In this document: positions 2,707 to 45,479 of the stretch, piece by piece
How the letters are laid out: every line of letters begins with the position of its first letter
Numbering within the stretch: position 1 is the stretch's first letter
From: Candidatus Bathyarchaeota archaeon
GTDB lineage: Archaea; Thermoproteota; Bathyarchaeia; Bathyarchaeales; Bathyarchaeaceae
DNA: 64,000 bases
Assembly (NCBI GenBank): GCA_030615265.1
Contig: JAUWZP010000001.1
Location: 6,225 to 70,224 of the forward strand
Reading direction: 5' to 3'
Translations under genes and position numbers: made by a program
The notes under the pieces: generated by a model
Databases searched by the model: none
What the model was told of the DNA's origin: nothing
The model's input: only the letters and a program-made list of their open reading frames with translations

Positions 2707-2826
2707 CCCTTTACACAGCGCATAGAGAAACTGTTGCCATAAAAATAGCCCTGAGGAGGCAGTGGAGACGATAGTTTGCGTAATAGTCATATGTTAGCAG
2801 CGAAAATACTAAATGTGGTGTAAATC

Positions 2827-3117: not shown

Positions 3118-3202
3118 TTCGTCTAGATGAAACATTAATATGACATTTTGGACATAAAGAGTGACAAAAAATATAAAAATAATTTAGCATTTCCTTATTT
3201 CA

Positions 3203-8228: not shown

Positions 8229-8384
8229 TGCGCCCAATATGGGACTGTTCAACATCGAAGTATAAGTCTAGTAGCTATGCGAAGGGATCTCACGGTTTTA
8301 ATGGACATTGGTGGAGACTTGCATTATGCATGCATATAATCCAGAATCTGAATTCGAGATTCATAAAGTTTAAGCCGTGAAAAT

Positions 8385-9284
8385 ATGAAGCAAAGATATG
8401 TATGTAGAATAAGTGGAGAAAAACTAACTTTGTCGCTATATTCCCTCCGTAGGGCAATGCGAGATAAATTATTGCTCAAGCTTGGGTTTCAATCGCTGTT
8501 TAGGGATAATGTCAGTTCATTCTATTTTCATGCTTTGAATCGCCAAACGAATCTAGCAGAGAGGAGATGTGGACCTCCATCTGTTAACTATTACGAATTT
8601 GGTGTTGGTTTGGGAGGCACTCTCATTAATTACATCAAAGCTTTAAGAAAGTTCTGCAAACGTTCAAAAAAGGAGCTTTATTCATACCATATATTCGCAT
8701 TTGATAGCTTTAATGGGTTACCGAAGAAGAAAAGTCCAAAAGATGACTATAAAGAGTGGTATGAAGGATGTTATTCACATAGTCTTTCTGAGATAAAGCA
8801 AAGGGTAATCAAACAAGGTATAGATTTAAGACAAGGAACTGTTCATCTCATCAAAGGTTTCTACGAGAAAACGTTAACGCCTGAACTTAGAAATGAACTA
8901 AAAGATTATCCACCTTCTATTGTTACCATAGATTGTGACTATTACAGTTCTACAAAGACTGTATTGGAATGGTTGAGACCGATATTGGTCAGTGGGACCC
9001 TTTTCTATTTTGATGACATCTGGAGTTTCCACGGAAATCCACACTACGGGGAATTAGCCGCAATTAATGAATTCAATAAGGCTGAAGAGGGACAATTAAC
9101 CCCAATTCCTCTTTTCGGATTGAGCAGTAAAATATTCATATATTCGAGAAGGGAATTTGAGTTCACGAGAGAGAATCAAGACGATAGAGAATTAAATGTT
9201 GAGATTGTAGACTCTAGTACTACTTCCCTTCAAAGAAAGAGCATATATGCGTCACCTTTGAATTGTCCACTTTTAAAATGTTAG
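8385..9284 (+). CDS. TylF/MycF-like (macrocin O-methyltransferase family) class I methyltransferase
   Basis: EFGVGLGGT, FAFDSFNGLP, LIKGFYEKTL and IVTIDCDYYSST resemble the TylF family (E.GV..G.s...fDsFeGlp ... G.f.dtlp ... DgDlYeST). Confidence 0.6.
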   Translation: MKQRYVCRISGEKLTLSLYSLRRAMRDKLLLKLGFQSLFRDNVSSFYFHALNRQTNLAERRCGPPSVNYYEFGVGLGGTLINYIKALRKFCKRSKKELYSYHIFAFDSFNGLPKKKSPKDDYKEWYEGCYSHSLSEIKQRVIKQGIDLRQGTVHLIKGFYEKTLTPELRNELKDYPPSIVTIDCDYYSSTKTVLEWLRPILVSGTLFYFDDIWSFHGNPHYGELAAINEFNKAEEGQLTPIPLFGLSSKIFIYSRREFEFTRENQDDRELNVEIVDSSTTSLQRKSIYASPLNCPLLKC

Positions 9285-23106: not shown

Positions 23107-24132
23107 CTATAGGTATTTTCTCATGTGTTCCAGCGCTGCTGAAGGGACAGGCAGGTCTTTCATTGTAACTACGCCAGGCGGAGCGTTTATCACTTTAGGA
23201 ATCGAATTTGCAATCACGGCTATTGTAGCTAGATCGCCATGTACGCAGGGGCTTATCTTCTGACGGATCGGTGGCACTCCATCGATGGTTACAGCATCGT
23301 ACTCTTCTTCCGCGCCTATATAGGCTTGAAACTCAAGTGTAATCCTCTCTTTTCCGTTGACAAAGCCGTGAGCGCTTTGCTTTAGGCCTGTGGCTTGTCC
23401 TCGCTTCACTTTGATGGCTTCGCTTGAAACATCTTTCCTAGCTATTACGGGCTCAACTGGGTCTATCTTAATCTTGTCAAGTTGCCATTTTAGGGCCCCA
23501 GCGATCATGCCTATTGACTGTTCAAGACCTACGTGGCCAGTGATGGCTTTCTCCTTCATTTTTTTCTTAAATTCTTTCACGGTGAGTCCTGCTCCTATCT
23601 TCTTTTGGAACGGAACTCTCCGTGTAGCAGCGTTCATGACTCTTTCAACTTTTATTCTGTTGACTTTTTGGCACACCGCAGTAAGCGTTATGACCAGCGT
23701 GTCCATTAGAAAACCTGGGTTTATGCCTGTTCCCAGAAAGGTTACTCCGTACTTCAGGCCTAAGGCATCTAGTTTCTTTGCAAGTTCAGGTTCTGAAACA
23801 TAGGGATAAGACAGTTCTTCGCACGTGGAAACCACGTTTACTCCATACTCAGCCAATGGAGCTATTTGAGGATAGACATCCCTAAGATAAGAGCTGGTTG
23901 CATGAACCACAACGTCTGCGCAAGCCTTGCCGAACACAGCCTTCGGGTCGTTTGAAACAACGACACCTAGCCGTTTGCCAATGCTTAAAACTTCGCCTAG
24001 GTCTTTTCCAACTTTGTCTTTGGCGATGTCTATGGCGCCTACGATTTTCACTCCTTCCTTTTCGAGGAGAAATTTAGCAATGCGGCTTCCAATGGCGCCA
24101 ACACCGTAAAGAACAACTCTTATTTTCTCCAT
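23107..24132 (-). CDS. NAD(P)-dependent DapB-like amine dehydrogenase family protein (2,4-diaminopentanoate dehydrogenase-like)
   Basis: IRVVLYGVGAIGSRIAKFLL Rossmann N-terminus, GTGINPGFLMD, and a C-terminal dimerisation domain as in the DapB/AmDH-like family. Confidence 0.6.
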   Translation of the reverse strand: MEKIRVVLYGVGAIGSRIAKFLLEKEGVKIVGAIDIAKDKVGKDLGEVLSIGKRLGVVVSNDPKAVFGKACADVVVHATSSYLRDVYPQIAPLAEYGVNVVSTCEELSYPYVSEPELAKKLDALGLKYGVTFLGTGINPGFLMDTLVITLTAVCQKVNRIKVERVMNAATRRVPFQKKIGAGLTVKEFKKKMKEKAITGHVGLEQSIGMIAGALKWQLDKIKIDPVEPVIARKDVSSEAIKVKRGQATGLKQSAHGFVNGKERITLEFQAYIGAEEEYDAVTIDGVPPIRQKISPCVHGDLATIAVIANSIPKVINAPPGVVTMKDLPVPSAALEHMRKYL

Positions 24133-24513
24133 ACAGCTTCCTCGTCGGTTAGCTATTTCTAAATTGGAATCAAAGATAAAGCCTTATTCTGCTTAAAAGC
24201 CTAATCACTAACTTTCAGCGTTTAGACACTAAATGTTTTGGGTCTTCCGAAGACCATGCGCGCGCATAGTCGATCAGTCTCCCATACGTGTTTACTGTGA
24301 CCAATGAGTTCATGTCATTGTCCAAGTCCTATAGTTGCGAATTCGAGTTTTTGGCTGAACTGTTTGGGGTTGTAGATTCTTCCATCGATTAGTAGGGGGC
24401 TTTTTCTTTTTGTTGGTTGAGTTTTTCGTTTGGTGGTGATGTCGAGCGCTAAGTTAATAAATGTGTTTCTTATTTTTATTTTTGGTTATAATTTGAATAA
24501 CTAGTGGTCGATT

Positions 24514-25407
24514 ATGTCGGGGTTGCCGTTGTGGTTCACGTTGTACTCAAAATTGGTCGAGTTCGGTCTTTATAGAGATCTTGCTTTTCGTGACGTTCAA
24601 GGGGTTTTGGGTCTGTCTACTGGCCATGTTAAACAGGTTATTCGGAAGTTGTTGGAGTTGAAGTTGATTGTGGGTCGTAGCAATCCTTTGGATAAGCGTT
24701 TTACTTTGTATAGGGTTGTTCCTTTACCTCTCTGGTCGAAGTACTGCGAGATGAAAGATGGGCTACCTGAGCAGTTAAGGGATGTTTTTCCCCTTCTTTT
24801 TTCCATTAAAGATGTCCATGCCGTTTTGCTTCTGGGCAGTTATGCCAGGAAGGATTTTGATGAGAAGAGCGATGTTGATGTACTTGTTGTCAGTGATGAT
24901 CCTGAAAGAGTGTTAGATTTGACCTATCACATTTGCTTGAATTTGCCTATCGATTTGCATTCATGTACCCCAGATGAATTTAGGAATTCGTTGTACCCGC
25001 TGATTCCGCATGTTGCGTTGTATGATGATGGTACCTGTGGGGAAGTAGACGTTTCACAAATTGAGGTCCTAAAGCTTTTACGCGATGCCATTGAGGGTGC
25101 ACAGAAAGTTTTGTATTTATATGCGAACGGGTTGGTTCGATTCCATCGTGTTTTTCCGGCCGTTTATGAATTAGTTTTCATTGACACCTTGCTTCACGGT
25201 TCAACCGAGCAACGTAAAGAAGATGTTTTAGAAAAGTTCTTTGTTGAGCACACCTCGGTCGGAAACTTGAAAAATGACTTGTTTAGGCTTTTGAGAATGT
25301 ATGAAAACTTGACGAAGGCGAGAGGTGAAGAAGTAGAACGTTTAGATCTGAAGGGGGAAGTGGAAATTTATAATAAAATCATTTCAGAGGTAAGCAAACA
25401 TGTCTGA
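24514..25407 (+). CDS. minimal nucleotidyltransferase (MNT, Pol-beta superfamily) with N-terminal winged-helix domain
   Basis: LLLGSYARKDFDEKSDVDVLVV is the GS-x9-11-DxD NTase signature. The N-terminal GLSTGHVKQVIRKLLELKLIV is HTH-like. Confidence 0.7.
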   Translation: MSGLPLWFTLYSKLVEFGLYRDLAFRDVQGVLGLSTGHVKQVIRKLLELKLIVGRSNPLDKRFTLYRVVPLPLWSKYCEMKDGLPEQLRDVFPLLFSIKDVHAVLLLGSYARKDFDEKSDVDVLVVSDDPERVLDLTYHICLNLPIDLHSCTPDEFRNSLYPLIPHVALYDDGTCGEVDVSQIEVLKLLRDAIEGAQKVLYLYANGLVRFHRVFPAVYELVFIDTLLHGSTEQRKEDVLEKFFVEHTSVGNLKNDLFRLLRMYENLTKARGEEVERLDLKGEVEIYNKIISEVSKHV

Positions 25408-25777
25408 AGAAGTTCGTGGCATAATAGATAGCGGCAACAACGCGTATGATAGGGGTGATTATACGGGGGCGGTTTTGGCGTATGATTCAGCCATTGAAGG
25501 AATGTTTAGAAGATATTTTTTCACGCGATACAATGAGACCGTTGGTTATGATTGGAGAAAGGTTGAAGAGGAATTCAAATCAAAGAACGTTAAACTTCCG
25601 CGTAAAATAAGCCGCCTTGTGTCTGAGTTTGCCCTTCTCAGATGGAAATCAAAGAGGGGCCCAAAATATCATTGGGCCAGAGCATTTGATAAAAGGGATG
25701 CTGAAAGGTACAAGGAACTAGTTAACAAGGTCTACGTAGCCACACAAAAATATCTACATAGGTTGCCACCAATTTGA
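25400..25777 (+). CDS. HEPN-domain protein, partner of the MNT
   Basis: All-helical 125 aa with an R-x4-H motif (KRGPKYH). 8-nt overlap with the upstream NTase gene, the usual MNT-HEPN operon layout. Confidence 0.5.
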   Translation: MSEEVRGIIDSGNNAYDRGDYTGAVLAYDSAIEGMFRRYFFTRYNETVGYDWRKVEEEFKSKNVKLPRKISRLVSEFALLRWKSKRGPKYHWARAFDKRDAERYKELVNKVYVATQKYLHRLPPI

Positions 25778-25874
25778 ATGTTGGTGCGACGCGCGGGTGT
25801 GAGTTGTATTATCTTTTTGTTAGTGTCTTTTTGTAGACCTTTACCTACCCCCTCTAGGTTTCCATGTATCGCGA

Positions 25875-25913
25875 ATATTTGAATCCAAATATGCAGGGTA
25901 TGGAAAAAAGGGG
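25875..25913. promoter_or_regulatory. composite module copy 1: near-palindrome ATATTTGAATCCAAATAT + 9-nt spacer + GGAAAAAAGGGG
   Basis: Read directly from the sequence. Copy 2 at 26712-26753 has identical spacing. On the minus strand the second half reads CCCCTTTTTTCC, which is oligo-T terminator-like. Confidence 0.6.
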
Positions 25914-26345
25914 TGTTTTTTCAGAACGTGTTTACTTGTCGTCGGCGCTAAGCGCCATAAGACGACGACAACTATAAAACTTCCAGACTTGCAAGGGGGC
26001 CCTACCTGAAAAGTCTACTGCAACTTGTTGTTGTGCAAAACCCACAGAAAAACACACAACAACAAGTGTGCCTCTCAGCAAGGATCTTCTAACACCTGAG
26101 CAGGCCTTGAAGATTTTAGCTGGCGCCAATCAAAAAGGCAGGTGGGAGTTGTTGTTGGTAAGCGAAAAACTAAGAAAACAACAACTGTGCCTTAGCAGGT
26201 TAGGCTTAAAAGTAGTTGTTCGCCGAAAACCTGGGAAACCGTGAACAACAACTTCTAAGCTTGTTCCCAAGGATATTTTAACACATGATAATCATCTTTT
26301 TACGTGGAATTTTTGGCATAAAAATGATACCCCCTATATTTTTCG
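25902..26345. ncRNA. candidate structured ncRNA / hairpin array (strand unresolved)
   Basis: No credible ORF. Six consecutive hairpins: 25936-25971, 25985-26016, 26023-26067, 26070-26105, 26147-26186 and 26210-26254. The ends are partly complementary (GGGGT at 25910 vs ACCCC at 26329). T-runs lie at 26338-26356 on the plus strand, and the A6 at 25904-25909 gives a minus-strand T-run. Confidence 0.35.
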
Positions 26346-26363
26346 TTATTCTTTTTGAGCTTT

Positions 26364-26411
26364 GGAAAAAAGGTCGTTTTCAACATACGTCCTTTATTAG
26401 GATCCAAATAT
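26364..26411. repeat. rearranged third copy of the module: GGAAAAAAGG + 26 nt + GGATCCAAATAT half-palindrome
   Basis: It has the same two sequence elements as 25875-25913 and 26712-26753, but in swapped order. Confidence 0.5.
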
Positions 26412-26413
26412 GC

Positions 26414-26600
26414 TCACCCTTTTGCAGTTAACAAGACGCCGACTATTGTTCCGATTAACCCGATGATTGCAGAGAAGATCTCGCTACTGAAAGAACCGAT
26501 GTACACAATGTGCACAATCTTGCTTCTACTTCGCCTGCCTTGAGAACGGTTACGCTGATTCCCCAGCCTGCTGGTATGGCCGTGTAGTCGATGTCGTAAA
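26414..26600 (-). pseudogene. relic of the C-terminal end of a membrane-anchored protein (frameshifted, no start)
   Basis: One frame gives NIYDIDYTAIPAGWGISVTVLKAGEVEAR. A neighbouring frame continues IVHIVYIGSFSSEIFSAIIGLIGTIVGVLLTAKG-stop (a TM helix). A stop lies immediately upstream. Confidence 0.3.
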
Positions 26601-26711
26601 TGTTTTAACACATGAAAAGGTTTGGAGTTCTGGTGGCGTTTCCATCAAACTTTGTGCGCAGCTTTCTAATTTTGAACGCCAAAAAAAACACGTCTTTCTC
26701 CCATAGTTTTT

Positions 26712-26753
26712 ATATTTGGATCCAAATATCTGTTCTATGGGAAAAAAGGGGGG
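26712..26753. promoter_or_regulatory. composite module copy 2: perfect 18-nt palindrome ATATTTGGATCCAAATAT + 9-nt spacer + GGGAAAAAAGGGGGG
   Basis: Read directly from the sequence. It is followed by TATCCCC, so the minus strand reads GGGGATACCCCCCTTTTTT, a hairpin plus a U-run. Confidence 0.6.
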
Positions 26754-26802
26754 TATCCCCGTTTTACGAATTAGAAAACTGCTTACGCCTCAGCAGACCT
26801 TT

Positions 26803-26859
26803 TCATGCGTTAAAACCTCGCCTGGGAACAAGCTTAGAAGTAGTAGCCTATGGCTACTA
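26803..26859 (-). repeat. inverted copy of the 26210-26288 module (hairpin + CTTCTAAGCTTGTTCCCA + TTTTAACRCATGA)
   Basis: 18-nt perfect inverted repeat, 26252-26269 vs 26823-26840. The flanking TTTTAACGCATGA (reverse complement of 26803-26815) matches TTTTAACACATGA at 26276-26288. The hairpin position is kept but its sequence differs (TAGTAGCC-TAT-GGCTACTA, 26841-26859). Confidence 0.7.
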
Positions 26860-26944
26860 ATTATCGGTTGCAGTAAAAATTTTCACGGCGGAGTACGTAT
26901 GCACGTGCACGTCGCAAAAACCGTTCAAAACAAGCTTGGAAACA

Positions 26945-26975
26945 GAAAAAAGGGGAGTTTACGGGGGACATCTCC
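26945..26975 (-). terminator. probable terminator of the rpl3-rpl4-rpl23 transcript
   Basis: The minus strand reads GGAGATGTCCCCCGTAAACTCCCCTTTTTTC, about 45-75 nt after the rpl23 stop. GGAG/CTCC can pair and are followed by a T6 run; archaeal termination typically uses oligo-T. Confidence 0.5.
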
Positions 26976-27018
26976 AGCATTAATATCTTAAAAGCCTAAT
27001 GACTTAATTCGCAGCCAA

Positions 27019-27279
27019 CTACAGAATGCCGAGTTTAATGGCGACGTCAACAGCCTTGTACTCTGGATGAAGTTTCACAAATGCCTTCTTCAAACCTTTC
27101 GGCGTAATTGCAACATTCACCTTTTCAACTCTCACTTCGTAGAGTTCTTCCACCGCTCGCCTAATGTCACCTTTGGAGGCCTTAAGGTTCACAATGAAAA
27201 CCAGCTTGTTCTCTGCCTCAAGTATGCGGCTAGCCACCTCGGTCATGAGAGGATACATTACAACGTCTTGTGGATCCAA
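27019..27279 (-). CDS. rpl23: 50S ribosomal protein L23 (uL23)
   Basis: The 86 aa sequence ...KLVFIVNLKASKGDIRRAVEELYEVRVEKVNV... has the L23 pattern. It sits directly after rpl4. Confidence 0.9.
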   Translation of the reverse strand: MDPQDVVMYPLMTEVASRILEAENKLVFIVNLKASKGDIRRAVEELYEVRVEKVNVAITPKGLKKAFVKLHPEYKAVDVAIKLGIL

Positions 27280-27284
27280 GCATT

Positions 27285-28064
27285 CTAGCCTCCGAACAAT
27301 TCTCCAAGCTTTTCAAAAGCCGACTTTGACCACATAGTGAGCCTACCAGGATGCGTTCCAGGAGCCAAAAGTTCAACGTTTAAATTGTTAACCTGGACAA
27401 CATCCATACCAAGAATATTTCTGGCTGCCTTCATTATGCCTCCGTTTTCAGCAACCACAAGTAAGGGTCCAACCGCATGCTTCCTCCTTCGCCCTCTCAT
27501 TTTGCCCTTGCCCGCCCGAATTTTCCGGCTTTCCTCAACTCGGTAAATGTCAGGCCAAACACCTAGCTTGATGAGAGTCTCTTTCACTTCGAGTGTCTTC
27601 TTCAATTTTTGAATATCATCGGCTACCACAAGGGGAAAGTCTGGAACATAGTCAGTTATGTGCCCACGGGAAGTCACAGTTTCCTTCAAGGCAGTTGCAG
27701 CTACAGCTGAACGCAGAGCTAGCTTCATCTCTTTTTTAGGAATTCTCTTCACAATCTTCTTCTCGATAACTGGAGGATAAGCCTCTCGACCGCCAACTGT
27801 GCCAACTACAAAGCCACCCTTGTGTCCCATCCCTTTAATTCTTGGAATTCGCGAAATTCCGAGGCCAGTACCCAAAAATTCAACGCTTCTTCTTTTTCCA
27901 GCCAGGGGGTTTCGTCCCTGCGGTTGAAAGCGGCGAGACTGAAGGGCAATTACAGCGCGTTTTATGACGTCACGTCTAATCGGAGTTTTGAAAACTGCGG
28001 GAAGGCTGACTTTGCCCAGTGCTTTGCCTTCTAGGTTGAAGATTTTGGCTGTTCTCTTGCCCAT
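27285..28064 (-). CDS. rpl4: 50S ribosomal protein L4 (uL4)
   Basis: The 259 aa sequence has ...RFQPQGRNPLAGKRRSVEFLGTGLGISRIPR...GGREAYPP... typical of archaeal L4. It lies between rpl3 and rpl23. Confidence 0.9.
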   Translation of the reverse strand: MGKRTAKIFNLEGKALGKVSLPAVFKTPIRRDVIKRAVIALQSRRFQPQGRNPLAGKRRSVEFLGTGLGISRIPRIKGMGHKGGFVVGTVGGREAYPPVIEKKIVKRIPKKEMKLALRSAVAATALKETVTSRGHITDYVPDFPLVVADDIQKLKKTLEVKETLIKLGVWPDIYRVEESRKIRAGKGKMRGRRRKHAVGPLLVVAENGGIMKAARNILGMDVVQVNNLNVELLAPGTHPGRLTMWSKSAFEKLGELFGG

Positions 28065-28080
28065 TTTTCCAAGTCCTCAT

Positions 28081-29091
28081 TTATCCTTGGGGTGACTCAA
28101 GCGATATGGAAACTATTTTCGGAGGTTCTTCTGGAACTCTTCTCGGAGGACGTGCAGGAGCGCGTAGCCTTATTAGGCGTTTGGTGGGGCCTGGTACGCT
28201 ACCGTCTATGAGGATATAGGCCCCGTTGATTTGGCCGTAGCGTAGAAATCCTCCTTTCGGCGTAACTTCGCTTCCGTCTGCCCCAATTTTCAGGATGCGC
28301 TTGTTATATTCAGTGCGTTGGTGGTAGCCCATTTGACCTGCTCTTGGAATGCTGTACTGGACTCTTGCGGGGTGCCAAGGTCCAAGGGTTGCAATGCCTC
28401 GTTTTGTCTTTCGAGCCTTGTGAGATAGAAGTCTAACGCCCCAACGTTTAACAGGTCCTTGAAAGCCTTTGCCTTTTGTTATGGCGATGGCGTCAACATA
28501 TTGGCCTTCTTTGAAGATGTCGGTAGCCGAAACTGTGTTTCCCAAGAGGTTCTTTGCGTATTCAAACTGCTCTTGAATTTGGGCTCCAGCTACTTTGATT
28601 TCCATCACGTCCGGCTTCTTTTTCGGGACGCTTGCAAGTCTGGGCTGAGTGGCAACCAAAAGGCGGAATTCAACAATTTTTTCGAGGTTTTCTTCCATTT
28701 TCTTGAAGGCTTGTTCTGGATTGTGGTTTTTAGGTGGCGTTAAAGCTCGGTTAAGGTCTTTTGGCGGTTTTTTCATCCAGGCTTCTGTGAAACTTTGTAA
28801 ACCATACGGGTTTTTTATGTAAGCGCGTATGGCACAAACTATGATAGGCGGAACGTCTATAACCGTAGCAGCGTGGGCTACTTCTTTGCCGAAATCTGAT
28901 GAGCCAGACTTGTCGTTAACCATGAAAACGTGGGTTAATCCAGCCTTGTAACCAGCAAACCCAAGTAGAATTGGGGTTTCAGCATCAATCTCAGGCCAAA
29001 AACGGATTCTGCCAACTGAACTTGCAGCACGTCCCTTAGGCAAAAAGGCGAGGGAACCACGTTTCGGGGCGTGCTTTTTTCTATGACCCAT
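28081..29091 (-). CDS. rpl3: 50S ribosomal protein L3 (uL3)
   Basis: MGHRKKHAPKRGSLAFLPKGRA... N-terminus and ITKGKGFQGPVKRWGV, both L3 hallmarks. Confidence 0.9.
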   Translation of the reverse strand: MGHRKKHAPKRGSLAFLPKGRAASSVGRIRFWPEIDAETPILLGFAGYKAGLTHVFMVNDKSGSSDFGKEVAHAATVIDVPPIIVCAIRAYIKNPYGLQSFTEAWMKKPPKDLNRALTPPKNHNPEQAFKKMEENLEKIVEFRLLVATQPRLASVPKKKPDVMEIKVAGAQIQEQFEYAKNLLGNTVSATDIFKEGQYVDAIAITKGKGFQGPVKRWGVRLLSHKARKTKRGIATLGPWHPARVQYSIPRAGQMGYHQRTEYNKRILKIGADGSEVTPKGGFLRYGQINGAYILIDGSVPGPTKRLIRLRAPARPPRRVPEEPPKIVSISLESPQG

Positions 29092-37996: not shown

Positions 37997-38560
37997 ATGA
38001 AACGGCTCATAAAAGATAGGAAGGGATTGAGCACAGTTGTTACTACACTGATTATTCTAGTAGTCGCTATTTTGCTAGCCACCGTTGTTACTTTCTATGC
38101 CATCAACGTTACAACGACTAGGGTTCAAGAGGAAAGTCTGCAGATCTTTAAACAGCATATCTGGCATAATGGCACGACTTATGCAGAAGGCGCATTTCTA
38201 GTAATCAATACTGGCGGTCGCGATCTTGTCATAGATAAGATCGCTGTCCGTGGTCAAGAATCCGCATGGAGCACAGTATACTACAACAAAACCACCAATG
38301 CAATTTCGGCTGACCTGACATACATCACGCCATTGACTAACGGTACACTAGTGGGCAAAAACTCGACTATAGGAGGAACTGACTACCCCTTAACTCAAGC
38401 TAGCGATGATTTGATATTGAAGTCTGGCTGGAGCATGATTGTCTACATCACGAACCCTGACAGCATATCGGTGAGTGATATAGGCGTTACTGTAGGGTTC
38501 ACAGCCTTCACTTCGAATGCTCAATACTACAAAGAGACAAACGTAGAAGCATCGGTGTAA
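37997..38560 (+). CDS. archaeal type IV pilin (class III signal peptide), paralog 1
   Basis: MKRLIKDRKG/LSTVVTTLIILVVAILLATVV has the K-G cleavage motif followed by a hydrophobic helix (DUF1628-type). Several N-x-S/T sequons. Confidence 0.8.
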   Translation: MKRLIKDRKGLSTVVTTLIILVVAILLATVVTFYAINVTTTRVQEESLQIFKQHIWHNGTTYAEGAFLVINTGGRDLVIDKIAVRGQESAWSTVYYNKTTNAISADLTYITPLTNGTLVGKNSTIGGTDYPLTQASDDLILKSGWSMIVYITNPDSISVSDIGVTVGFTAFTSNAQYYKETNVEASV

Positions 38561-38662
38561 ACAACTTTCCTTTTTTTCTTATTTGTTCTTCAATGGTATT
38601 TTTAGAGAATGCTTAACCAAGCTAGTTCAACGAGGTATGGTACATTAATTCGTTTTAGAATT

Positions 38663-38700
38663 GTAGTACTGTTCTACGTGGGTGTGTAGTGCTGTTCTAC
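38663..38700. promoter_or_regulatory. tandem GTAG-N7-CTAC motifs (GTAGTACTGTTCTAC, GTAGTGCTGTTCTAC) upstream of pilin gene 2
   Basis: The two copies are 8 nt apart, 60-95 nt upstream of the ATG at 38759, and are followed by the conserved block GCACAAATTATCTTAT. Confidence 0.5.
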
Positions 38701-38758
38701 GCACAAATTATCTTATTTCTTAAGATACAAACTCCCGTCGTCAAACGGAGATAAAAAA

Positions 38759-39331
38759 ATGAAAAGTCTCTTGAAGAGTAAAAAAGGGCTCAGCACCGTA
38801 GTGACAACGCTGATCATCTTGGTGGTCTCAGTGCTACTGGCAACTGTCGTTACTTTCTACGCTATCAACGTAACTACCACGAGAGTACAAGAGGAAAGTT
38901 TGCAGATGTTTAAACAGCACATTTGGCATAACGGTACCACGCATTCAGAAGGCGCATTTCTAGTAATCAATACTGGCGGTCGCGATTTCGTCCTAGACAA
39001 GATTGCTGTCAGAGGACAAGAAAGCAATTGGACCAACATATGGTACTCCAAAACAACGAACTCCATCTCAGCAGATCTGCCATACGTGACACCAGAAACC
39101 GACGGCACATTAAACGGTACTGATATGGTAACTGTCAGCGCGAATACATACAACTTTACACGGGGTTCAGTCGGAGAAGACTTAATATTGAAGTCTGGTT
39201 GGAGCATGATTGTCTACCTCACGTATCCCGACAGCGTTTCAGTAAGCGACATCGGTGTCACAATAGGAATCACGATACACACAGCAACCGCTCAATACTA
39301 CAAAGAAACCAACGTAGAAGCATCTGTTTAG
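38759..39331 (+). CDS. archaeal type IV pilin (class III signal peptide), paralog 2
   Basis: MKSLLKSKKG/LSTVVTTLIILVVSVLLATVV. Nearly identical to paralog 1 at the N- and C-termini and divergent in the central part. Confidence 0.8.
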   Translation: MKSLLKSKKGLSTVVTTLIILVVSVLLATVVTFYAINVTTTRVQEESLQMFKQHIWHNGTTHSEGAFLVINTGGRDFVLDKIAVRGQESNWTNIWYSKTTNSISADLPYVTPETDGTLNGTDMVTVSANTYNFTRGSVGEDLILKSGWSMIVYLTYPDSVSVSDIGVTIGITIHTATAQYYKETNVEASV

Positions 39332-39340
39332 AAAAGAAGC

Positions 39341-39372
39341 CCTACCCCCCTTTCTTTTTCCCCCCCTTTTTT
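39341..39372 (+). terminator. pyrimidine-rich C/T tract after pilin gene 2 (probable oligo-T terminator)
   Basis: CCTACCCCCCTTTCTTTTTCCCCCCCTTTTTT starts 10 nt after the stop codon. Confidence 0.5.
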
Positions 39373-39419
39373 ATGAAAAAATTACGGTATCTTAGAATAC
39401 GTATGCTGTATTCTGATGT

Positions 39420-39434
39420 GTAGTACTGATTTAC
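39420..39434. promoter_or_regulatory. GTAGTACTGATTTAC motif plus conserved ACACAAATCATCTTAT block upstream of the pilus assembly operon
   Basis: About 36 nt (39417-39453) are homologous to 38683-38720 upstream of pilin 2. Confidence 0.45.
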
Positions 39435-39548
39435 ACACAAATCATCTTATCTATTATCCTATCAGAAGTCCTTCCCACGAAAAAGGGAGAAGAGAAAACC
39501 AGCTGTATTTCACAACTGGTTCTCTCCAATCCTTTTCACTGTAGGGGA

Positions 39549-40394
39549 GTGCGTTACATGGAGAAACACAAGCGTAGGGAAAATTCGCCGAACCTCCTAT
39601 CTTCTCAGAGAGGAATAGCTCTTCCTGTTACTTTTTTGATGCTATTTGTTTCTCTAGTTCTGTTAATTTCAGCCACCTACTATTTTTCGATAAGCAGAAT
39701 CAGCGCAAAAACTCAAGCATTAAAAGTTTCGGGTGCAGAACAAGGAATGCTTTCACTTGAAAAAATCGTTAAATTTGTGGCTTGGTCCCCTGGCTCTTAC
39801 GAAATTTACGAGTTCGATGATTTCGGAGGCGAGTTCGGGGTTGTGCCAACCGCAAAAAGATTGGTACTGAACTTAACCGATGATTCTTCTTTTTATGATG
39901 TTTTCTTTAACAGTACTATTGGGAAAGTTGTCTATGAATTGCCTCCTTCAGAAACAATTGATAACCTTTTCTTAAAAGGAGACAATCGTGTCATTGTGAA
40001 TCAAAGTTCATCCACGATGACTCAGCTATACATTTCTCAAGGCACAGAATATTATGAGATAACGCTTTCATATCGTCCTTCGGCTGGCTCAACAGTCACA
40101 GGCTCAAGCAGTGGGAAACCCGTGAACAATCTGCGAGTCTACATAATTAACCTTAATTCGTCACAGAACATAACACGGCTTGGAAACTTCCGTCTCAAAG
40201 TAACTAGCGTAAATGTTACCTCTAGTTGGCGAACCTACAATTTCACAGATCCAATAACATCTCTATTGGTGAAAGCAAGTATAGATGGAACTAACAGCGA
40301 GGTTTCCTTGCCCATCACAAGTAACCCAACCGGCGCCATAGTCAACTTGGAGACGGTGACCTGCAACATTAAAACGGAAGATGTAGGCTGGTGA
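39549..40394 (+). CDS. pilin-like protein (class III signal peptide), probable minor pilin/assembly component
   Basis: ...SSQRG/IALPVTFLMLFVSLVLLISATYYF N-terminus and a sequon-rich beta-type body. First gene of a tightly packed operon. Confidence 0.6.
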   Translation: MRYMEKHKRRENSPNLLSSQRGIALPVTFLMLFVSLVLLISATYYFSISRISAKTQALKVSGAEQGMLSLEKIVKFVAWSPGSYEIYEFDDFGGEFGVVPTAKRLVLNLTDDSSFYDVFFNSTIGKVVYELPPSETIDNLFLKGDNRVIVNQSSSTMTQLYISQGTEYYEITLSYRPSAGSTVTGSSSGKPVNNLRVYIINLNSSQNITRLGNFRLKVTSVNVTSSWRTYNFTDPITSLLVKASIDGTNSEVSLPITSNPTGAIVNLETVTCNIKTEDVGW

Positions 40395-40401
40395 TGACAG
40401 T

Positions 40402-40854
40402 TTGCCATCAATTCTCCCAAGTCACATCTACACCCTAGTTGCTTTATCCGCTGTTTGCACAATTCTACTCGCTTCACTTAACGCCTATACAACCTCTCTA
40501 AAAGCTACACCTGAGATAGAACAACTGGAAAACATGATTAACCATGTTGCGGCAAAGGGAAACGAACTTTTAACAATAGTAGCTACAACAAACTCTTCAG
40601 CACAGGTTTCCATTCAACTACCCGCAACAATCGGATATAAGCAATATTGGATACGCGTCCGCAATGACTCCTCAAGCGCGTGGCTAGAAGGCTCTTTAGG
40701 CCAAATAATTGAAAATGAATCGATACATCGAGTTTACTTGCCTAAAAGAACATCCGCATCAGGCTACTACATAGGAGGATACGGACCAGCAATCTTAGAG
40801 TGTGCCATGAACGGTTCAACCCCACAGCTTAATCTCTCTTCTTTAGGAGGCTAA
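40402..40854 (+). CDS. pilin-like/pilus accessory protein with N-terminal hydrophobic helix
   Basis: MPSILPSHIYTLVALSAVCTILLASL N-terminus. 7-nt gap from the previous gene. Confidence 0.45.
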   Translation: MPSILPSHIYTLVALSAVCTILLASLNAYTTSLKATPEIEQLENMINHVAAKGNELLTIVATTNSSAQVSIQLPATIGYKQYWIRVRNDSSSAWLEGSLGQIIENESIHRVYLPKRTSASGYYIGGYGPAILECAMNGSTPQLNLSSLGG

Positions 40855-40859
40855 CGCAA

Positions 40860-42461
40860 GTGAAACTTAAGATAAAAAAAAGGAAAGGAGACAAAAAACA
40901 AGAGGAAAGCGCATCTGAGGAGCCTCATGTAGAAACCTTACTTGGACAATTAGGTCTCAGGCAACATGGACCCCCCGAAGGATACATCAAAGTAGAAACC
41001 TACCCCCTCAAACCACCATTCTCTTATGCTTCAATAGTCCAAAATGAAAACACAGCTGAGCTCCTGTACATAATTGACGAGCTTCCTCTGGAAAAAGAGG
41101 AGAGAGAAGCACACGACCGCATGAGAAACGTGCTTGAATACGAGTTAAAGGCACCAGAAGGAGAAGAAAGCCTAAGCGAATCTTTTCATCGACAACTGCC
41201 GATAATTACCGAAAATCATCCTAAGACAACCATGGGAATTTCGCAAATTGGCATCCGAAAAATCCAGTATTACTTAGAACGAAGCATCATAGGCTATGGA
41301 AAAATTGAACCTTTAATACATGACCCATACGTAGAAGACATAAGTTGCGGCGGCATTGGCAAGCCAATTTTTCTTTGGCACAGAGTCTACGAAAACATCA
41401 AAACCAACATTTTCTTCAACACCGAAGAAGAAGTGAACAACTTTGTTATGAGAATAGTTCACAAAGCTGGAAAACACGTCAGCATTGCCTTTCCAATAGT
41501 GGACGTAACCTTGCCTGGCAAGCATCGTTTGGCTGTCTCCTACGGAAGAGAAACAACTCCTTCTGGAACAAGCTTCACAATAAGGAAATTCCGTAAAGAC
41601 CCGTTCACCATAGTTGATCTAATTGAAAACGAGACATTAGACGAGTCTGTAGCGGCTTATCTTTGGCTCCTTGTAGAAAATAAGATGCCCATCATGATTA
41701 TAGGTGCCACTGGCGCTGGCAAAACCACAGCCTTAAACGCAATCGCATGTTTGATTCGTCCCAGCTACAAGATAATCACGGTAGAAGAAGTTGCTGAAAT
41801 AAACCTGCCCCATGAAAACTGGACTTCAACCATTGCACGTTCCGGCTTTGGAGCAGAAAAGGAGGGCGAAATAACCCTTTATGACCTTATAAAATCGTCT
41901 GTAAGACACCGCCCAGACCTAATAATCGTAGGCGAAATAAGAGGCGAAGAGGCATATGTGCTGTTTCAAGCGCTCGCCACAGGACACGGTGGACTTTGTA
42001 CCATGCACGCTGATGATGTTGAAACCGCTGTTAAGAGGCTTACTCAACCTCCAATGAATATTCCAGCGTCTATTATTACATTAATGAAATGTGTAATCGC
42101 TGTAAGACATGTTCGAACACCAGTCTTTCTAGAGTCCGGTAGGAGATTGTCAAGTAGAAAATTTGTACAAGTTTCTGAGATAAGAGATGCCAGCTCAACT
42201 GTTGATGTGTTCGATTGGAACGCTTCGTCTGATATTTTTCAAGAAAAGCTTGAGAAAAGCATCTTTTTTAAGCGTATAGCAAAAAGGCTGGACATATCTC
42301 TTGAGCAGTTAATCGACGAATTTGAATACCGCAAAAAAGTGTTGCTAACCATGGTAGAACACAACGTAAGAGACTATCGAAGCGTCAACAGGGTTCTAAG
42401 CAAATACTATCACAACCCAAGCGCCTTGCATGGTGAATCATTAAGAAATTTCAAGTGGTGA
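40860..42461 (+). CDS. type II/IV secretion-family assembly ATPase (FlaI/PilB/TadA-like)
   Basis: Walker A IIGATGAGKTTALNA, Walker B/Asp box DLIIVGEIRGEEA and His box ATGHGGLCTMHAD. Confidence 0.9.
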   Translation: MKLKIKKRKGDKKQEESASEEPHVETLLGQLGLRQHGPPEGYIKVETYPLKPPFSYASIVQNENTAELLYIIDELPLEKEEREAHDRMRNVLEYELKAPEGEESLSESFHRQLPIITENHPKTTMGISQIGIRKIQYYLERSIIGYGKIEPLIHDPYVEDISCGGIGKPIFLWHRVYENIKTNIFFNTEEEVNNFVMRIVHKAGKHVSIAFPIVDVTLPGKHRLAVSYGRETTPSGTSFTIRKFRKDPFTIVDLIENETLDESVAAYLWLLVENKMPIMIIGATGAGKTTALNAIACLIRPSYKIITVEEVAEINLPHENWTSTIARSGFGAEKEGEITLYDLIKSSVRHRPDLIIVGEIRGEEAYVLFQALATGHGGLCTMHADDVETAVKRLTQPPMNIPASIITLMKCVIAVRHVRTPVFLESGRRLSSRKFVQVSEIRDASSTVDVFDWNASSDIFQEKLEKSIFFKRIAKRLDISLEQLIDEFEYRKKVLLTMVEHNVRDYRSVNRVLSKYYHNPSALHGESLRNFKW

Positions 42462-42467
42462 CCCATT

Positions 42468-43976
42468 TTGCTAAAAACTCGGGGCAAAAGGAACATCTTT
42501 GGTCGGATACTTAGTCTACTCTCTAAAGAGAAATCTGGAGAAATTGACCGTGAGTTGCCCTTCGCCGTGATGATGTTCACCACATTGGCTGCAAGCGGCG
42601 TTACACTTTATGAAAGTTGGAAAAAAATGCGCGTTGTTCATCTTCTCCCTAAAATTCAAAAAGACGCTGAAGATGTGGTTCGACAAGTCGAAGTTTTGGG
42701 TTATGATCCTCTCACTGTTATGGAGAAAAAAGCTGAGAAAACCACTTCGAAACTATATCGGGACTTTTTGGCTGGATTTGTTTCCTCAGTTAGGAGTGGA
42801 GGCAACGTTGTCAGCTTCTTGAAAAGCAAGTTGCATTCGATTTTGGAGATTCAGAATGCAGCCGCAACACGGTCAATTGAAAAGTTGGGAGCGCTTGTTG
42901 AGACTTATGCTGTCATGCTGATAGTGATTCTTTGCACTTACATCTTGTACGTCGTGATGTCTTCGACTTCGATTTTCGAACTTAGGCAGACTGGCTCTGT
43001 AGCCTCAAGTGCTCCTGAACCCTTCATGTATGTCCTAATATTCTTGATAATGCCCTCAATTTCCATCGTGTTTATGGCAGTTGCTCATTTAGCCCGTAAA
43101 AGCAGCTTCATATCTCTTGGCTCCGTATACCGCAAAGTAATCGTTCCAGTTGTGGGCGCTTCAGCCTTCCTTATGTTGGTCATATTTGTGCCCCAAGTGC
43201 AGTTTATAATGGAATCATTCAGTTTGGCAGCGATTGTAACACTTTGCCTTATAGTTGTTTCTGTACCTTCAGCTCTTGCTTATCATCGAGTTGCAGTTGT
43301 GAATTTTGCAGCAGAAGAATCCATGCCAAGTTTTCTACGAGACGTTACCGAAGCAAGGAAAATTGGGCTATCTCCAGAAAAAAGTATCATTCATGCCTCA
43401 AAGAGAAGAGGTTACGGAAGATTCTCGGGGCTTCTGGAGCTTGTTAGAAGCCAAATAGAGTGGGGTGTCGCTTTGAAAAAAATATTTACCAACATTAGAA
43501 GGAAACTTCAAAGCTGGCCTGTGCTTGTTCACTTTTTCATCCTCGTTGAAACAATAGAAATTGGAGGCGGCTCTGCCAAGGCTTTGGAAATACTCGCTGA
43601 ATACTCTGAGAAAAACAGAGACATTGAGATGAATAAGCGGTCCATGCTCAAGCCCTACATTGTTTTAGCCTTTATTTGGAGTGTTTTAATAGCTTTTACA
43701 ACAACAATTGTGGCTGTAACAATATCCGTGCTTGTTCAGATTTCAGTTCCCGGCATGGCTCCATCATCTTTTGACGTTATGCAACAGCAGATAACTCTTT
43801 TTTCAATCGGCATAATCTTTCAAACTTGGATGTCAGGCTTCTTTGTAGGCAAGGTTAGCGAGGGCTCCTTTGCTGCGGGCTTCAAGTATTCTGCTATGTT
43901 GGCAGCTACGGCTTATGTTTCTCTTATACTGTCTCAGCATTTTATGGCTGGCTTATTCACGTCAGGCTACACCTAG
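42468..43976 (+). CDS. polytopic membrane platform protein (FlaJ/TadC, T2SS-F family)
   Basis: 502 aa with two repeated T2SSF-like halves, each with cytoplasmic helical bundles followed by TM helices. It lies immediately downstream of the ATPase. Confidence 0.8.
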   Translation: MLKTRGKRNIFGRILSLLSKEKSGEIDRELPFAVMMFTTLAASGVTLYESWKKMRVVHLLPKIQKDAEDVVRQVEVLGYDPLTVMEKKAEKTTSKLYRDFLAGFVSSVRSGGNVVSFLKSKLHSILEIQNAAATRSIEKLGALVETYAVMLIVILCTYILYVVMSSTSIFELRQTGSVASSAPEPFMYVLIFLIMPSISIVFMAVAHLARKSSFISLGSVYRKVIVPVVGASAFLMLVIFVPQVQFIMESFSLAAIVTLCLIVVSVPSALAYHRVAVVNFAAEESMPSFLRDVTEARKIGLSPEKSIIHASKRRGYGRFSGLLELVRSQIEWGVALKKIFTNIRRKLQSWPVLVHFFILVETIEIGGGSAKALEILAEYSEKNRDIEMNKRSMLKPYIVLAFIWSVLIAFTTTIVAVTISVLVQISVPGMAPSSFDVMQQQITLFSIGIIFQTWMSGFFVGKVSEGSFAAGFKYSAMLAATAYVSLILSQHFMAGLFTSGYT

Positions 43977-43988
43977 GGGAGCTTTCTG

Positions 43989-45056
43989 TTGCCAGCATCC
44001 TCCATTGACACCTTTCTCGCATGCTCAGTCATGATTGTACTCGTTTTGTCAGCAATGGTAGGTACATCTAAGCTTATGACTCCTTACATACGTGGCTTGT
44101 CAAACAGAGATGATCCTGAGCGGCTGCAGCAACTTGCTTCGCATATCCTTTTAAATACTGGAACGCCGTCCAACTGGGGAGAAACGCAGGAAGTCACACC
44201 TAGCAGTCTAGGTCTAGCTAAGGCAGATTCTTTCCTGCCTTATGAACTCGACATCGACAAAGTTTCACGTCTAAACAGCGAAAACGCATATGCGCTGACT
44301 TACCGTGAGCTATGGGAATCACTTGGCATACAAGATGTCGCCTTTCAGATAGAAATAGGAACATTGTTTGAACTTTCAATTGAGGCAACTTCAAATCAAA
44401 CACAAGGAGCTGATACAGTTTACGAGTTTGAAGTTACGACAAAAAAATCTGGAATGCCTATCCCAGCGAACTTGAGCAGCTATGTGGTTGTTGAAAATTT
44501 TGTGAATAACGTGACCTCTTCCACCTCTTCTAACGGAGTTGGCTCATTTTCCATCAATGTTCCAAACTCGGTGAATGGCACAACGCTTCTACTCGTTTTC
44601 GCCAGGGCACAAGCTAATCCGCGGATGGTTTCCTTCAACGTTTACGCTTTCGGTCACAACTCGGCGACTCCTTCTCCTAACAGAACCTTCCTATCCCTCA
44701 GCCCTCTAAACTACGTCTTAAACGTGTCCATCACCTATTCCAGCACAGAGATTCTGAAAGCACAAGTGTTCACATTTAACTACAATTTCAGCCTAACCGA
44801 GAAAGCTCAAGGGAACCAAACTGTAGAGTACAATATTCCGCGCCTTCTAGATTCAAGCCCAATGATACTAGTGCTCACCGGACTCAACGGGTCATCTTCC
44901 TTCGCGGAGTGGGTTTCATATCCTCAACTGCCACTGCAGATAGGCTCAGATTTCAGCCAGAGTATAGCTGGGGCAAAAATAGTCTCACAAACTACTATTG
45001 TAACCATAAATTTTGCGCTTTACGAAGTTGTGACAAAATGGGGAGGACCAACATAA
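43989..45056 (+). CDS. pilus-associated secreted protein with N-terminal hydrophobic helix, sequon-rich
   Basis: IDTFLACSVMIVLVLSAMVGTS N-terminus and many N-x-S/T. Operon context. Confidence 0.45.
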   Translation: MPASSIDTFLACSVMIVLVLSAMVGTSKLMTPYIRGLSNRDDPERLQQLASHILLNTGTPSNWGETQEVTPSSLGLAKADSFLPYELDIDKVSRLNSENAYALTYRELWESLGIQDVAFQIEIGTLFELSIEATSNQTQGADTVYEFEVTTKKSGMPIPANLSSYVVVENFVNNVTSSTSSNGVGSFSINVPNSVNGTTLLLVFARAQANPRMVSFNVYAFGHNSATPSPNRTFLSLSPLNYVLNVSITYSSTEILKAQVFTFNYNFSLTEKAQGNQTVEYNIPRLLDSSPMILVLTGLNGSSSFAEWVSYPQLPLQIGSDFSQSIAGAKIVSQTTIVTINFALYEVVTKWGGPT

Positions 45057-45479
45057 GTGCTTGACAACAGAGGACAAACCAGAATAATCGAAGCCTTTCT
45101 GGCAATTGCAGTTGTATTTTCAGCGCTGATAATTAGCGCTGTCACGTTTCCGTCTTCCCCAACTCTCACGAAGCAAAAGTCTTTGGCAAGCCTTGGAATA
45201 CAAGCTTTAATAGAACTTGACATTAATGGCACGCTTGGAAAACTCGTTGCGCAAGAAAACTGGACTGCAATAAAACAATCTCTCGACGTCGTACTGCCCA
45301 TAGGTGTTTCATTTAACCTCACAATCTATGATGAAAACTTAATCCAGCTTAACTCGCAAGTTATTCAGAACACCAATTTGCTGGGCCGTGAAACAGTTTC
45401 GGTGCAATATTTCTGTGCAACTCAAAGCCAGAACATCCAGTTTTTTACCCTTCGCATGCAGTTGGCTTGGACTAGGTGA
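45057..45479 (+). CDS. pilin-like protein (class III signal peptide)
   Basis: MLDNRGQ/TRIIEAFLAIAVVFSALIISAV. The GTG start abuts the previous stop. Confidence 0.55.
   Translation: MLDNRGQTRIIEAFLAIAVVFSALIISAVTFPSSPTLTKQKSLASLGIQALIELDINGTLGKLVAQENWTAIKQSLDVVLPIGVSFNLTIYDENLIQLNSQVIQNTNLLGRETVSVQYFCATQSQNIQFFTLRMQLAWTR

Follow-up and report, generated by a model that had tools for sequence, protein, structure and literature searches.

Short non-coding repeats built around a palindrome are a familiar component of prokaryotic genomes. In enterobacteria, repetitive extragenic palindromes (REPs) are scattered between genes in hundreds of copies and are combined into bacterial interspersed mosaic elements (BIMEs), whose units alternate in orientation and are joined by conserved linkers. 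Archaea carry transposable elements of the miniature inverted-repeat type (MITEs), such as the SM elements of Sulfolobus, and the palindrome-associated transposable elements (PATEs) of haloarchaea, which are likewise repeated, palindromic and intergenic. Here we describe a locus of this kind in a 64,000-nt (64 kb) stretch of contig JAUWZP010000001.1 from a Candidatus Bathyarchaeota archaeon (hereafter the window, in which all unprefixed positions are counted), where an 18-nt palindrome, ATATTTGGATCCAAATAT, a 9-nt spacer and a run of G and A, GGAAAAAAGGGG, recur within a single intergenic gap. We find that this module, first noticed in an initial annotation of the letters, forms the innermost ~40 nt of a DNA repeat of composite structure and is not a stand-alone signal, and that its 18-bp dyad is the invariant core of an extragenic repeat family of Bathyarchaeia. 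With a probability that we put at roughly one half, the locus is a mosaic cluster of a dispersed, palindrome-centred extragenic repeat, REP/BIME- or MITE-like in nature, that is recognised by a protein and prone to recombination.

Bathyarchaeia are abundant and almost wholly uncultured, and we know of no work on the cis-acting elements of their genomes. The sequences of the element described here find no mention in the searchable literature, and the family is apparently undescribed so far.

Distribution of the repeat among genomes

An exact scan for the 18-mer (ATATTTGRATCCAAATAT) over one genome per species, 185,579 species genomes in all, returned at least 114 matching stretches. At least 41 sites fall in at least 15 Bathyarchaeia assemblies, at five or six or more per genome, and the complete 2.35-Mb chromosome OY970176.1 carries at least five, at ~95, 875, 1164, 1374 and 2200 kb. 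The full element is also present in a contig labelled as a bacterial metagenome-assembled genome (MAG; L111), the flanks of which are ~90% identical to those of locus L112, and an archaeal MAG (L009) has a variant palindrome without the box described next; the remaining matches listed come from bacterial assemblies and look like chance. The initial annotation had proposed such a genome-wide search and had held that a motif spread evenly through the genome would be an ordinary one; at the level of the family, a motif scattered through genomes is indeed what we see.

On one side of the palindrome, at a fixed offset of 12 nt, lies a conserved box of 27-31 nt, the A box (palindrome-[CT]CATGRTACRTTGAAACCTAGGAGGGGTAGG), which is present at 32 of the 41 sites listed, or at 33 sites when L111 is counted. 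Since the A box was no part of the search pattern, its conservation, with a mean between-genome identity of 88.7% over 27 nt, is independent of the search. Identity within genomes is slightly higher (92.3%), and four of the five copies in OY970176.1 have a private CCGAGG variant in common. At the orthologous sites L062 and L101, the element is near-identical and the flanks are at ~70% identity. These observations suggest constraint on the sequence or its homogenisation. Searched with an nhmmer profile of the element, each 8-kb locus yields one full copy; the window likewise yields a single one, which spans 25844-25899 of the minus strand (E = 5.6e-13) and whose A box (TCGCGATACATGGAAACCTAGAGGGGGTAGG, 25844-25874, minus strand) has 24 of 27 positions in agreement with the consensus of the family (z = 7.6). 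In five loci a different box, the B box, stands on one side.

The family sites are intergenic, and their flanking genes occur in all four orientations and at distances from 9 to >800 nt. The 3' end of a tRNA gene points at the element in ~9 of 33 loci, and 15 of 33 have a GCGC-type palindrome no more than 50 nt away, compared with 9% of background windows. In the window, GCGCGC(GC) palindromes, often TGCGCGCA or ATGCGCGCGCAT, occur nearly only in intergenic spacers (4064, 4285, 5602, 13546, 21558, 24258, 51246, 52105 and 53374) and look like a second dispersed intergenic signal of these genomes.

Among 149 neighbouring ORFs, assigned to 156 Pfam families of which the 25 commonest were inspected, we found no recurrent partner and no recurrent recombinase, transposase or initiator; an association with an insertion sequence (IS) or an integrase was rejected, as no mobile-element family recurs among these ORFs. 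A conserved helical ORF of ~96 aa (MQRRLCYVADKYNLDMQKVRFELILELK..., MQRRL...) lies ~35 nt past the A box in L026, L046, L055, L071 and L083, two of these on the same chromosome. We considered its gene as that of a candidate binding protein and set it aside, as it has no similarity in Pfam or PDB and is missing from most loci. A viral or plasmid origin was also rejected: 2.9 million viral contigs contain neither the palindrome nor a marker of the arm C described below, and their single A-box match is intragenic and palindrome-free.

Composition of the cluster in the window

Allowing three mismatches, ATATTTGGATCCAAATAT matches the window three times, whereas 0.04 matches are expected from shuffled sequence. 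The three copies are confined to one gap, with none elsewhere in the 64 kb, and comprise copy 1 at 25875-25892 (ATATTTGAATCCAAATAT, one mismatch), copy 2 at 26394-26411 (TTATTAGGATCCAAATAT, two mismatches) and copy 3, perfect, at 26712-26729. The G/A run GGAAAAAAGGGG is found at 25902-25913 and 26740-26751 and, with one mismatch, at 26944-26955; this count of three, against 0.52 expected, was reached by 1 of 100 shuffles. Every copy of both motifs lies in an ORF-poor gap of 1.24 kb (25778-27018), flanked on one side by a plus-strand gene pair encoding a minimal nucleotidyltransferase (MNT) and a 125-aa protein and on the other by the minus-strand rpl3-rpl4-rpl23 operon.

Much of the initial description of these letters agrees with our matches. 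There are two full modules of the same architecture and spacing, with spacers of exactly 9 nt that end in TAT (GCAGGGTAT and CTGTTCTAT); the palindrome at 25875 has one mismatch and that at 26712 none; and a solo G/A element stands near rpl23 (TTGGAAACAGAAAAAAGGGG, 26936-26955, plus strand, read on the minus strand as CCCCTTTTTTC at 26955-26945). What had been called a rearranged copy is made of real G/A and palindrome pieces, but its palindrome is a full 18-mer, of which only the right 12 nt had been listed, and its other piece, GGAAAAAAGG at 26364-26373, lies in a diverged, inverted arm of copy 2. Nor does the module stand by itself, as the dyad extends to ~215 nt at copy 3 and a conserved box lies beyond copy 1.

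These extensions are resolved by an alignment (A3) of the sequences that lead outward from six palindrome copies. It defines a unit of ~125-140 nt, arm C, of the form palindrome-N5-CTATGGAAAAAAG(AC/GG)GTG-T7-GCGATTCAAAATTAGAAAGCTGC...CTTTTCATGCGTTAAAA, which, in the lineage of the window, flanks the palindrome on one side or on both and the first 25 nt of which are the 9-nt spacer and G2-3 A6 G4-6 run of the initial annotation. To the left of copy 2 stands one arm C (26270-26393, minus strand, outward from the palindrome, holding GGAAAAAAGG). Copy 3 has it on the left (26590-26711, minus strand) and on the right (26730-26850, plus strand, holding GGGAAAAAAGGGGGG at 26739-26753), and is thereby the centre of an imperfect palindrome of ~215 nt at 26602-26816 (inverted-repeat pairs I3, I13 and I4). 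Copy 1 joins the A box on its left to a truncated proximal arm C on its right (25893-25927, plus strand), which comprises a T6 run in addition to the 9-nt spacer and GGAAAAAAGGGG. The space that separates copy 1 from copy 2 holds an array of four hairpin mini-repeats with GTTGTTG/CAACAAC-type stems (25934-26259; pairs I9 and I11), the units being 25934-25975, 26023-26067, 26147-26187 and 26205-26259. The mosaic of 1.2 kb is thus composed of three palindrome units and four hairpin mini-repeats, and resembles a bacterial BIME in this. Its arms are not protein-coding, since the copies differ by frameshifts (they read MKRSAEA and MKRSVDA, each followed by a stop, a 13-aa ORF and an 82-aa ORF). In the sole non-repeated stretch between copies 2 and 3 there is a 65-aa ORF on the minus strand (26414-26611), basic at its N-terminus, hydrophobic in a segment near its C-terminus (IFSAIIGLIGTIVGVLLTAKG) and unmatched in Pfam, which might encode a small membrane peptide or be spurious.

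When metagenomes were scanned with an 18-mer taken from the gap, three further loci came to light, L130, L133 and L138, in which the window's building blocks, hairpin mini-repeats included, stand in other orders and beside other genes, with one to four palindrome copies each. The window, L130 and L138 each have three palindrome copies within ~1 kb, interleaved with arm C and hairpin modules in differing orders; L133 and L138 come from the same source metagenome as L123, a contig that we return to below. A 55-nt hairpin recurs in all four loci (window 26205-26259, L138 1137-1191, L133 6282-6336 and L130 1329-1383); its base is kept (CTTAGAAGT...ACTTCTAAG), and its upper stem shows two compensatory changes between the window and its L138 counterpart (GTTGTTC/GAACAAC vs GTAGTCC/GGACTAC). 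Short-read contigs of the window strain break within the repeats: L001 stops at position 26658, in the long palindrome, and L119 likewise ends in repeats. Homologues of the MNT lie mostly on contigs of 1-4 kb (P0121-P0135), consistent with assembly breaks at repeats, and the repeat element accounts for the breaks in short-read assemblies of this lineage at these loci.

Junctions at the palindrome

In 15 pairwise genome comparisons, homology on the A-box side extends for 85-3,500 nt and ends between -2 and 0 from the first base of the palindrome; given that the element is conserved throughout, the junction proper may be at either of its edges. L112 differs from L111 by an extra 2.7 kb that abuts the palindrome and encodes ArsR, an HMA protein and a P-type ATPase, and L111 has an insertion of 2.2 kb on the side opposite to this cassette. 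The stretch from +60 to +2300 from the palindrome in L111 consists of a degenerate duplicate of a tRNA-Cys 3' end by the A box, 2.2 kb of sequence and an intact tRNA-Cys gene; this arrangement is the trace classically left by integrative elements that target tRNA genes. Beside the same neighbour, the element is flipped in L092 relative to L107 and in L040 relative to L082. The joints seen are A-palindrome-C, C-palindrome-C, A-palindrome-B and X-palindrome-B. A direct repeat of ~20 nt flanks the unit in L082, and no consistent terminal inverted repeats (TIRs) or target-site duplications (TSDs) were seen for single units.

A perfect dyad and an A box that are kept across at least 15 assemblies suggest, at the level of sequence, a site for a dimeric protein, and this was the most defensible part of the initial annotation. 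The dyad would be bound by a dimeric sequence-specific protein, for which the flanking boxes may provide accessory contacts, and the element would work as a junction at the DNA level where flanks are exchanged, inserted or flipped. Two routes can be envisaged, 1) the action in trans of a site-specific recombinase or transposase-like enzyme, or 2) DNA breaks promoted by hairpin or cruciform formation. The strands that read inward have T5-T8 runs facing the palindrome, which as a side effect would probably stop transcription arriving from either side, and the solo copy would end that of the rpl3-rpl4-rpl23 operon.

Several observations weigh against such a recombination-prone, mobile-like repeat. 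No recombinase, transposase or REP-associated tyrosine transposase (RAYT)-like gene stands beside the copies among the 25 commonest Pfam families, although singletons could escape this count, and for the single unit of palindrome and A box we see neither a TSD nor an empty site. At five or six or more per genome among the matches listed, the copy number is far under that of classical REPs. For selfish MITEs or REPs, near-identity over 48 nt between species would be out of the ordinary, and a host function, be it regulatory, architectural or related to replication, fits at least equally well. Breaks of synteny at dispersed repeats can arise passively. The perfect conservation of the palindrome is partly a matter of ascertainment, because the exact 18-mer was searched. 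Finally, only a weak similarity links the G/A run to the A box (z = 1.3-2.0), and the notion that the former is an inverted, degenerate form of the latter was dropped for that reason. The main uncertainty is whether the conservation across species comes from a host function (architecture, regulation or initiator binding) or from mobility.

The inserted segment and its surroundings

The cluster sits in an insertion of 2,795 bp bounded by a perfect 14-bp direct repeat, CTTAAAAGCCTAAT, which matches the window twice (0.07 expected), on the left at 24192-24205 and on the right at 26987-27000; the copies are identical over 14 bp, and their similarity reaches 20 of 23 nt. The homologues of ribosomal protein L4 place the window genome in Bathyarchaeia, and six relatives lack the insertion (L145, L146, L147, L116, L117 and L118, with L4 identities of 93, 93, 93, 92, 88 and 86%, respectively). 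In these six, rpl23 is followed after ~90 nt by a DapB_N/DAP_DH_C (diaminopimelate dehydrogenase) gene, which in the window, at 23107-24132, lies 2.9 kb from rpl23. The alignment with the relatives shows an ancestral spacer split by the insertion, and L116-118 have a single copy of CTTAAAAGCCTAAT between rpl23 and the dehydrogenase gene. The same insertion is present in the metagenome contig L123, which is 98% identical to the window over 24844-28676. The insertion is thus recent and species-specific, and the mosaic either arrived with it or accreted inside it. Polymorphic presence and absence among close relatives is seen for this 2.8-kb segment, but not for a single palindrome unit.

The insertion is made up of 300 nt of non-coding DNA with a ATGCGCGCGCAT palindrome, the gene pair and the 1.2-kb gap, and it contains no integrase, transposase, Cas1 or initiator gene. 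The first gene of the pair encodes an MNT-type protein of 297 aa (24514-25407, plus strand; Pfam NTP_transf_2 and Polbeta) and overlaps by 8 nt the ORF of its 125-aa partner (25400-25777, plus strand), which belongs to no Pfam family. The pairing of the two is conserved and recurs in L140-L144. In L140 the homologous pair is flanked by a TnpB-like gene (Cas12f1-like_TNB, 2547-3584) and an IS200/IS605 Y1 transposase gene (8308-8709), a ParE toxin gene is also present, and no palindrome copy is found there, the vicinity of the Y1_Tnp gene included. A casposon was considered for the window's insertion and rejected: the 14-bp direct repeat is suggestive, but the insertion ends have no TIRs, and there is no Cas1 or PolB. 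On the minus strand, the direct repeat reads ATTAGGCTTTTAAG and shares ATTAGGCT with a palindrome variant of L130 (CTATTAGGCTCCAAATAT, 858-875), and copy 2 of the window (TTATTAGGATCCAAATAT, 26394-26411) is one base off this 8-mer, which hints that the insertion target resembled a palindrome half-site.

The ribosomal operon ends after rpl23 (27019-29091), with no rpl2-rps19 beyond it, and it does so in the insertion-free relatives too, so that this break in a gene order conserved among archaea is ancestral and not due to the insertion. Farther away, at 37997-46246, the window has a type IV pilus- or archaellum-like cluster with two pilin-like ORFs that carry a KGLSTVVTTLIILVV signal-anchor, a T2SSE ATPase (40860-42461) and membrane proteins.

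Alternative explanations

The alternative that survives best, although we consider it unlikely, is that the locus consists of ordinary transcription signals, with the T6 runs as oligo-T terminators and the palindrome as a bidirectional terminator or insulator hairpin, or as a symmetric TATA box/TFB-recognition element (TATA/BRE), reused between genes. Archaeal termination needs only oligo-T, and the solo C4T6 lies on the minus strand 64 nt past the stop codon of rpl23 (27019); copies 1 and 3 each have T5-T8 runs directed at them on the strands that read inward, the tRNA genes mentioned above have their 3' ends turned towards part of the family sites, and in 7 of 33 loci a GC-rich palindrome is followed by a T-run 9-10 nt from the palindrome. 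These seven are, however, the only loci of the 33 with a T-run beside the palindrome, flanking genes present their starts to the element as often as their ends and at the widely varying distances already mentioned, and a 27-nt A box kept base by base is needless for a terminator or a promoter. The short stems that had been seen ahead of the minus-strand T6 runs fold like shuffled sequence (z = -0.2 and +0.5), so a hairpin-plus-T terminator was rejected, a bacterial-type scan being uninformative. Of the terminator that the initial annotation had suspected, the C4-6 T6 at the expected place past rpl23 stands and the stems do not, and by our analysis the solo element is probably the terminator of rpl3-rpl4-rpl23. 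The symmetric TATA/BRE fared worse, and with it any core promoter: the distances from palindrome to gene start are unconstrained, every combination of flanking orientations occurs, and the T7 run just downstream of the palindrome argues against a promoter directed outward. Termination is a plausible local function of these copies, but not the raison d'être of the family.

Slightly less likely again is that the cluster encodes small non-coding RNAs, such that the hairpins and arm C, in which a TTTTAAC TATA-like box and the T-runs enclose ~50-90 nt, are transcribed and the palindrome is a shared 3' end. The long palindrome (z = -7.3) and the hairpin mini-repeats (z = -5.0 and -4.3) have a strong folding potential, a TTTTAACRCATGA box is kept at the distal end of each arm with the T-runs proximal, and the hairpin stems show the two compensatory changes described above. 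Yet both strands fold equally well, as DNA palindromes would, the independent copies are too few for a covariation test, and neither terminators nor promoters occur consistently about the class-wide core of palindrome and A box. No known RNA is found anywhere in the window by Rfam 15 at the gathering score and no tRNA in the gap by ARAGORN, and Rfam thresholds relaxed to E = 10 yield only chance-level matches in the gap and none in L130, L133 and L138.

The initial annotation had also been reminded of archaeal origin recognition boxes (ORBs), and the resemblance is real and closer than had been noticed, although it lies in the G/A run and not in the 18-mer. The archaeal ORB consensus, in the form in which PMC4153887 quotes Pelve et al., is CTTCCAGTGGAAACGAAAGGGGT; the G/A run, as TGGAAA--AAAGGGGT, fits the 3' two-thirds of it in all 14 positions once a 2-nt gap is allowed (z = 5.0), and scores against the consensus reach z = 4.5 for copy 3, 4.1 for the solo copy and 3.2 for the A box. 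We regard it as improbable, more so than an RNA gene, that the family represents class-wide, dispersed targets of an initiator of the Orc1/Cdc6 or another winged-helix type, or of a recombinase, serving as auxiliary or dormant origins, as initiator-titrating sites like datA, or as landing pads for accessory DNA. If this were so, initiator-like recognition would be tied to the genome plasticity of Bathyarchaeia.

More doubtful still is that the locus itself is an origin, or the remnant of one from an integrated extrachromosomal replicon, with the G/A runs and the A box as ORB-like boxes for an Orc1/Cdc6-type initiator around AT-rich palindromes. At copy 1, two ORB-like boxes diverge, inverted, from the palindrome, and the region is inserted DNA, as would suit the acquisition of archaeal origins by integration (PMC4010727); but the inverted boxes are merely 36 bp apart, and the TTCC half of the ORB dyad, a core motif (PMC1904270), is missing in all copies. 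The 64 kb contain five matches of TGG(G)AAA-N0-8-GGGG, every one of them within the insertion. They are, however, the A box, two G/A runs and two coding-sequence matches (the solo copy is excluded by its 9-nt spacer), one of the latter being kept for coding reasons in L144, and relatives have ~1 match per 10 kb, so that the clustering is accounted for by repeat copies and two coding matches and was discarded as evidence. The absence of an orc1/cdc6 gene from the window, already pointed out in the initial annotation, is confirmed: an Orc1-sized Walker-A search finds no Orc1/Cdc6-like ORF in the window or in the ~41 family loci fetched, the two Walker A ORFs of the window belonging to a MoxR/CbbQ-type AAA protein and the T2SSE ATPase, and the Cdc6 family is absent among the recurrent neighbours. 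The gap has no AT-rich unwinding element, its minimum of 31% GC per 100 nt comparing with a genome average of ~43%, and the GC-skew analysis that had been suggested tracks gene strand only. The same population has clusters of this kind at no fewer than three further loci, the copies of the family occur singly and dispersed, and the six close relatives lack the region altogether. The ORB-like letters thus hold, while an initiator, an unwinding element, the TTCC half and conservation of the locus do not accompany them.

That the palindrome is the operator of the MNT/125-aa pair, on the grounds that copy 1 lies 66 nt downstream of this toxin-antitoxin-like pair and that palindromic operators are typical of toxin-antitoxin systems, can be dismissed, as the position is at the 3' end of the operon and not at its promoter, the homologous pairs of L140-L144 have no palindrome nearby, which unties the palindrome from the cassette altogether, and the neighbours of the family are unrelated genes.

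Discussion

Our preferred reading, a dispersed palindrome-centred repeat that is recognised by a protein and prone to recombination, concerns a 48-nt element that is near-invariant in at least 15 species-level genomes, stands at synteny breakpoints and beside tRNA genes and accessory cargo, and has been amplified into mosaics in one lineage. The family offers a handle on genome rearrangement and DNA acquisition in Bathyarchaeia and a defined probe for the protein that reads it. Should the resemblance to ORBs prove functional, it would also bear on the spread of archaeal initiator-binding sites.

Among the systems with which the element can be compared, archaeal oligo-T terminators are the most local match. 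They have in common with it a C-rich stretch followed by T6 on the transcribed strand just past a gene, here rpl23, but the T-run is embedded in a longer repeat and most family members have none. The core sites of tyrosine recombinases (dif, loxP and att) and the attC sites of integrons are similar in combining a dyad core with flanking accessory sequence and in joining different segments at that core, and accessory cargo (metal resistance, toxin-antitoxin-like) adjoins the element here; they differ in their arms of 11-13 bp, in contrast to the 6-bp arms and 6-bp centre of our palindrome, and no recombinase gene is nearby. An integron attC was specifically rejected, since the outer arms GTTTTAAC and GTTAAAAC are one base too long for the R''(RYYYAAC)/R'(GTTRRRY) boxes and there is no IntI; the window has no integrase, and the intervals between its palindromes are non-coding, with no array of ORF cassettes.

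With ORBs and mini-ORBs, the repeat shares TGGAAA(C), an A-rich spacer and GGGG(T), as well as boxes inverted about an AT-rich centre, and single mini-ORB-like repeats are scattered outside origins in Pyrococcus (PMC1904270). It departs from them in having no TTCC half, adjacent initiator or unwinding element, and in being a multi-copy element at a locus that is not conserved.

The closest counterparts are the two classes of dispersed palindromic repeats. Like the SM elements of Sulfolobus and the haloarchaeal PATEs, the family consists of palindromic, non-coding repeats between genes, its copies in the window belong to a strain-specific insertion that has a direct repeat, and they interrupt assemblies; unlike them, its single unit has no defined TIR or TSD, no parent IS was found, and a 48-nt core is common to genomes whose flanks have diverged to ~70%. 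To REPs and BIMEs it corresponds in being an extragenic, dispersed palindromic unit that forms mosaics in both orientations with linkers, and both occur at gene ends, together with rearrangement and transcript 3' ends. Here, however, the family is archaeal and counts tens of copies among the matches listed, as opposed to hundreds, no RAYT-type Y1 transposase is among the 25 commonest neighbour families, and an AT-rich, perfect 18-bp dyad with a long asymmetric A box, near-invariant across species, takes the place of a GC-rich, imperfect stem. Dispersed palindromic repeats and MITEs are thus already known as such, and what appears to be new in Bathyarchaeia is the combination of an AT-rich perfect dyad, a long asymmetric box and near-invariance across many species.

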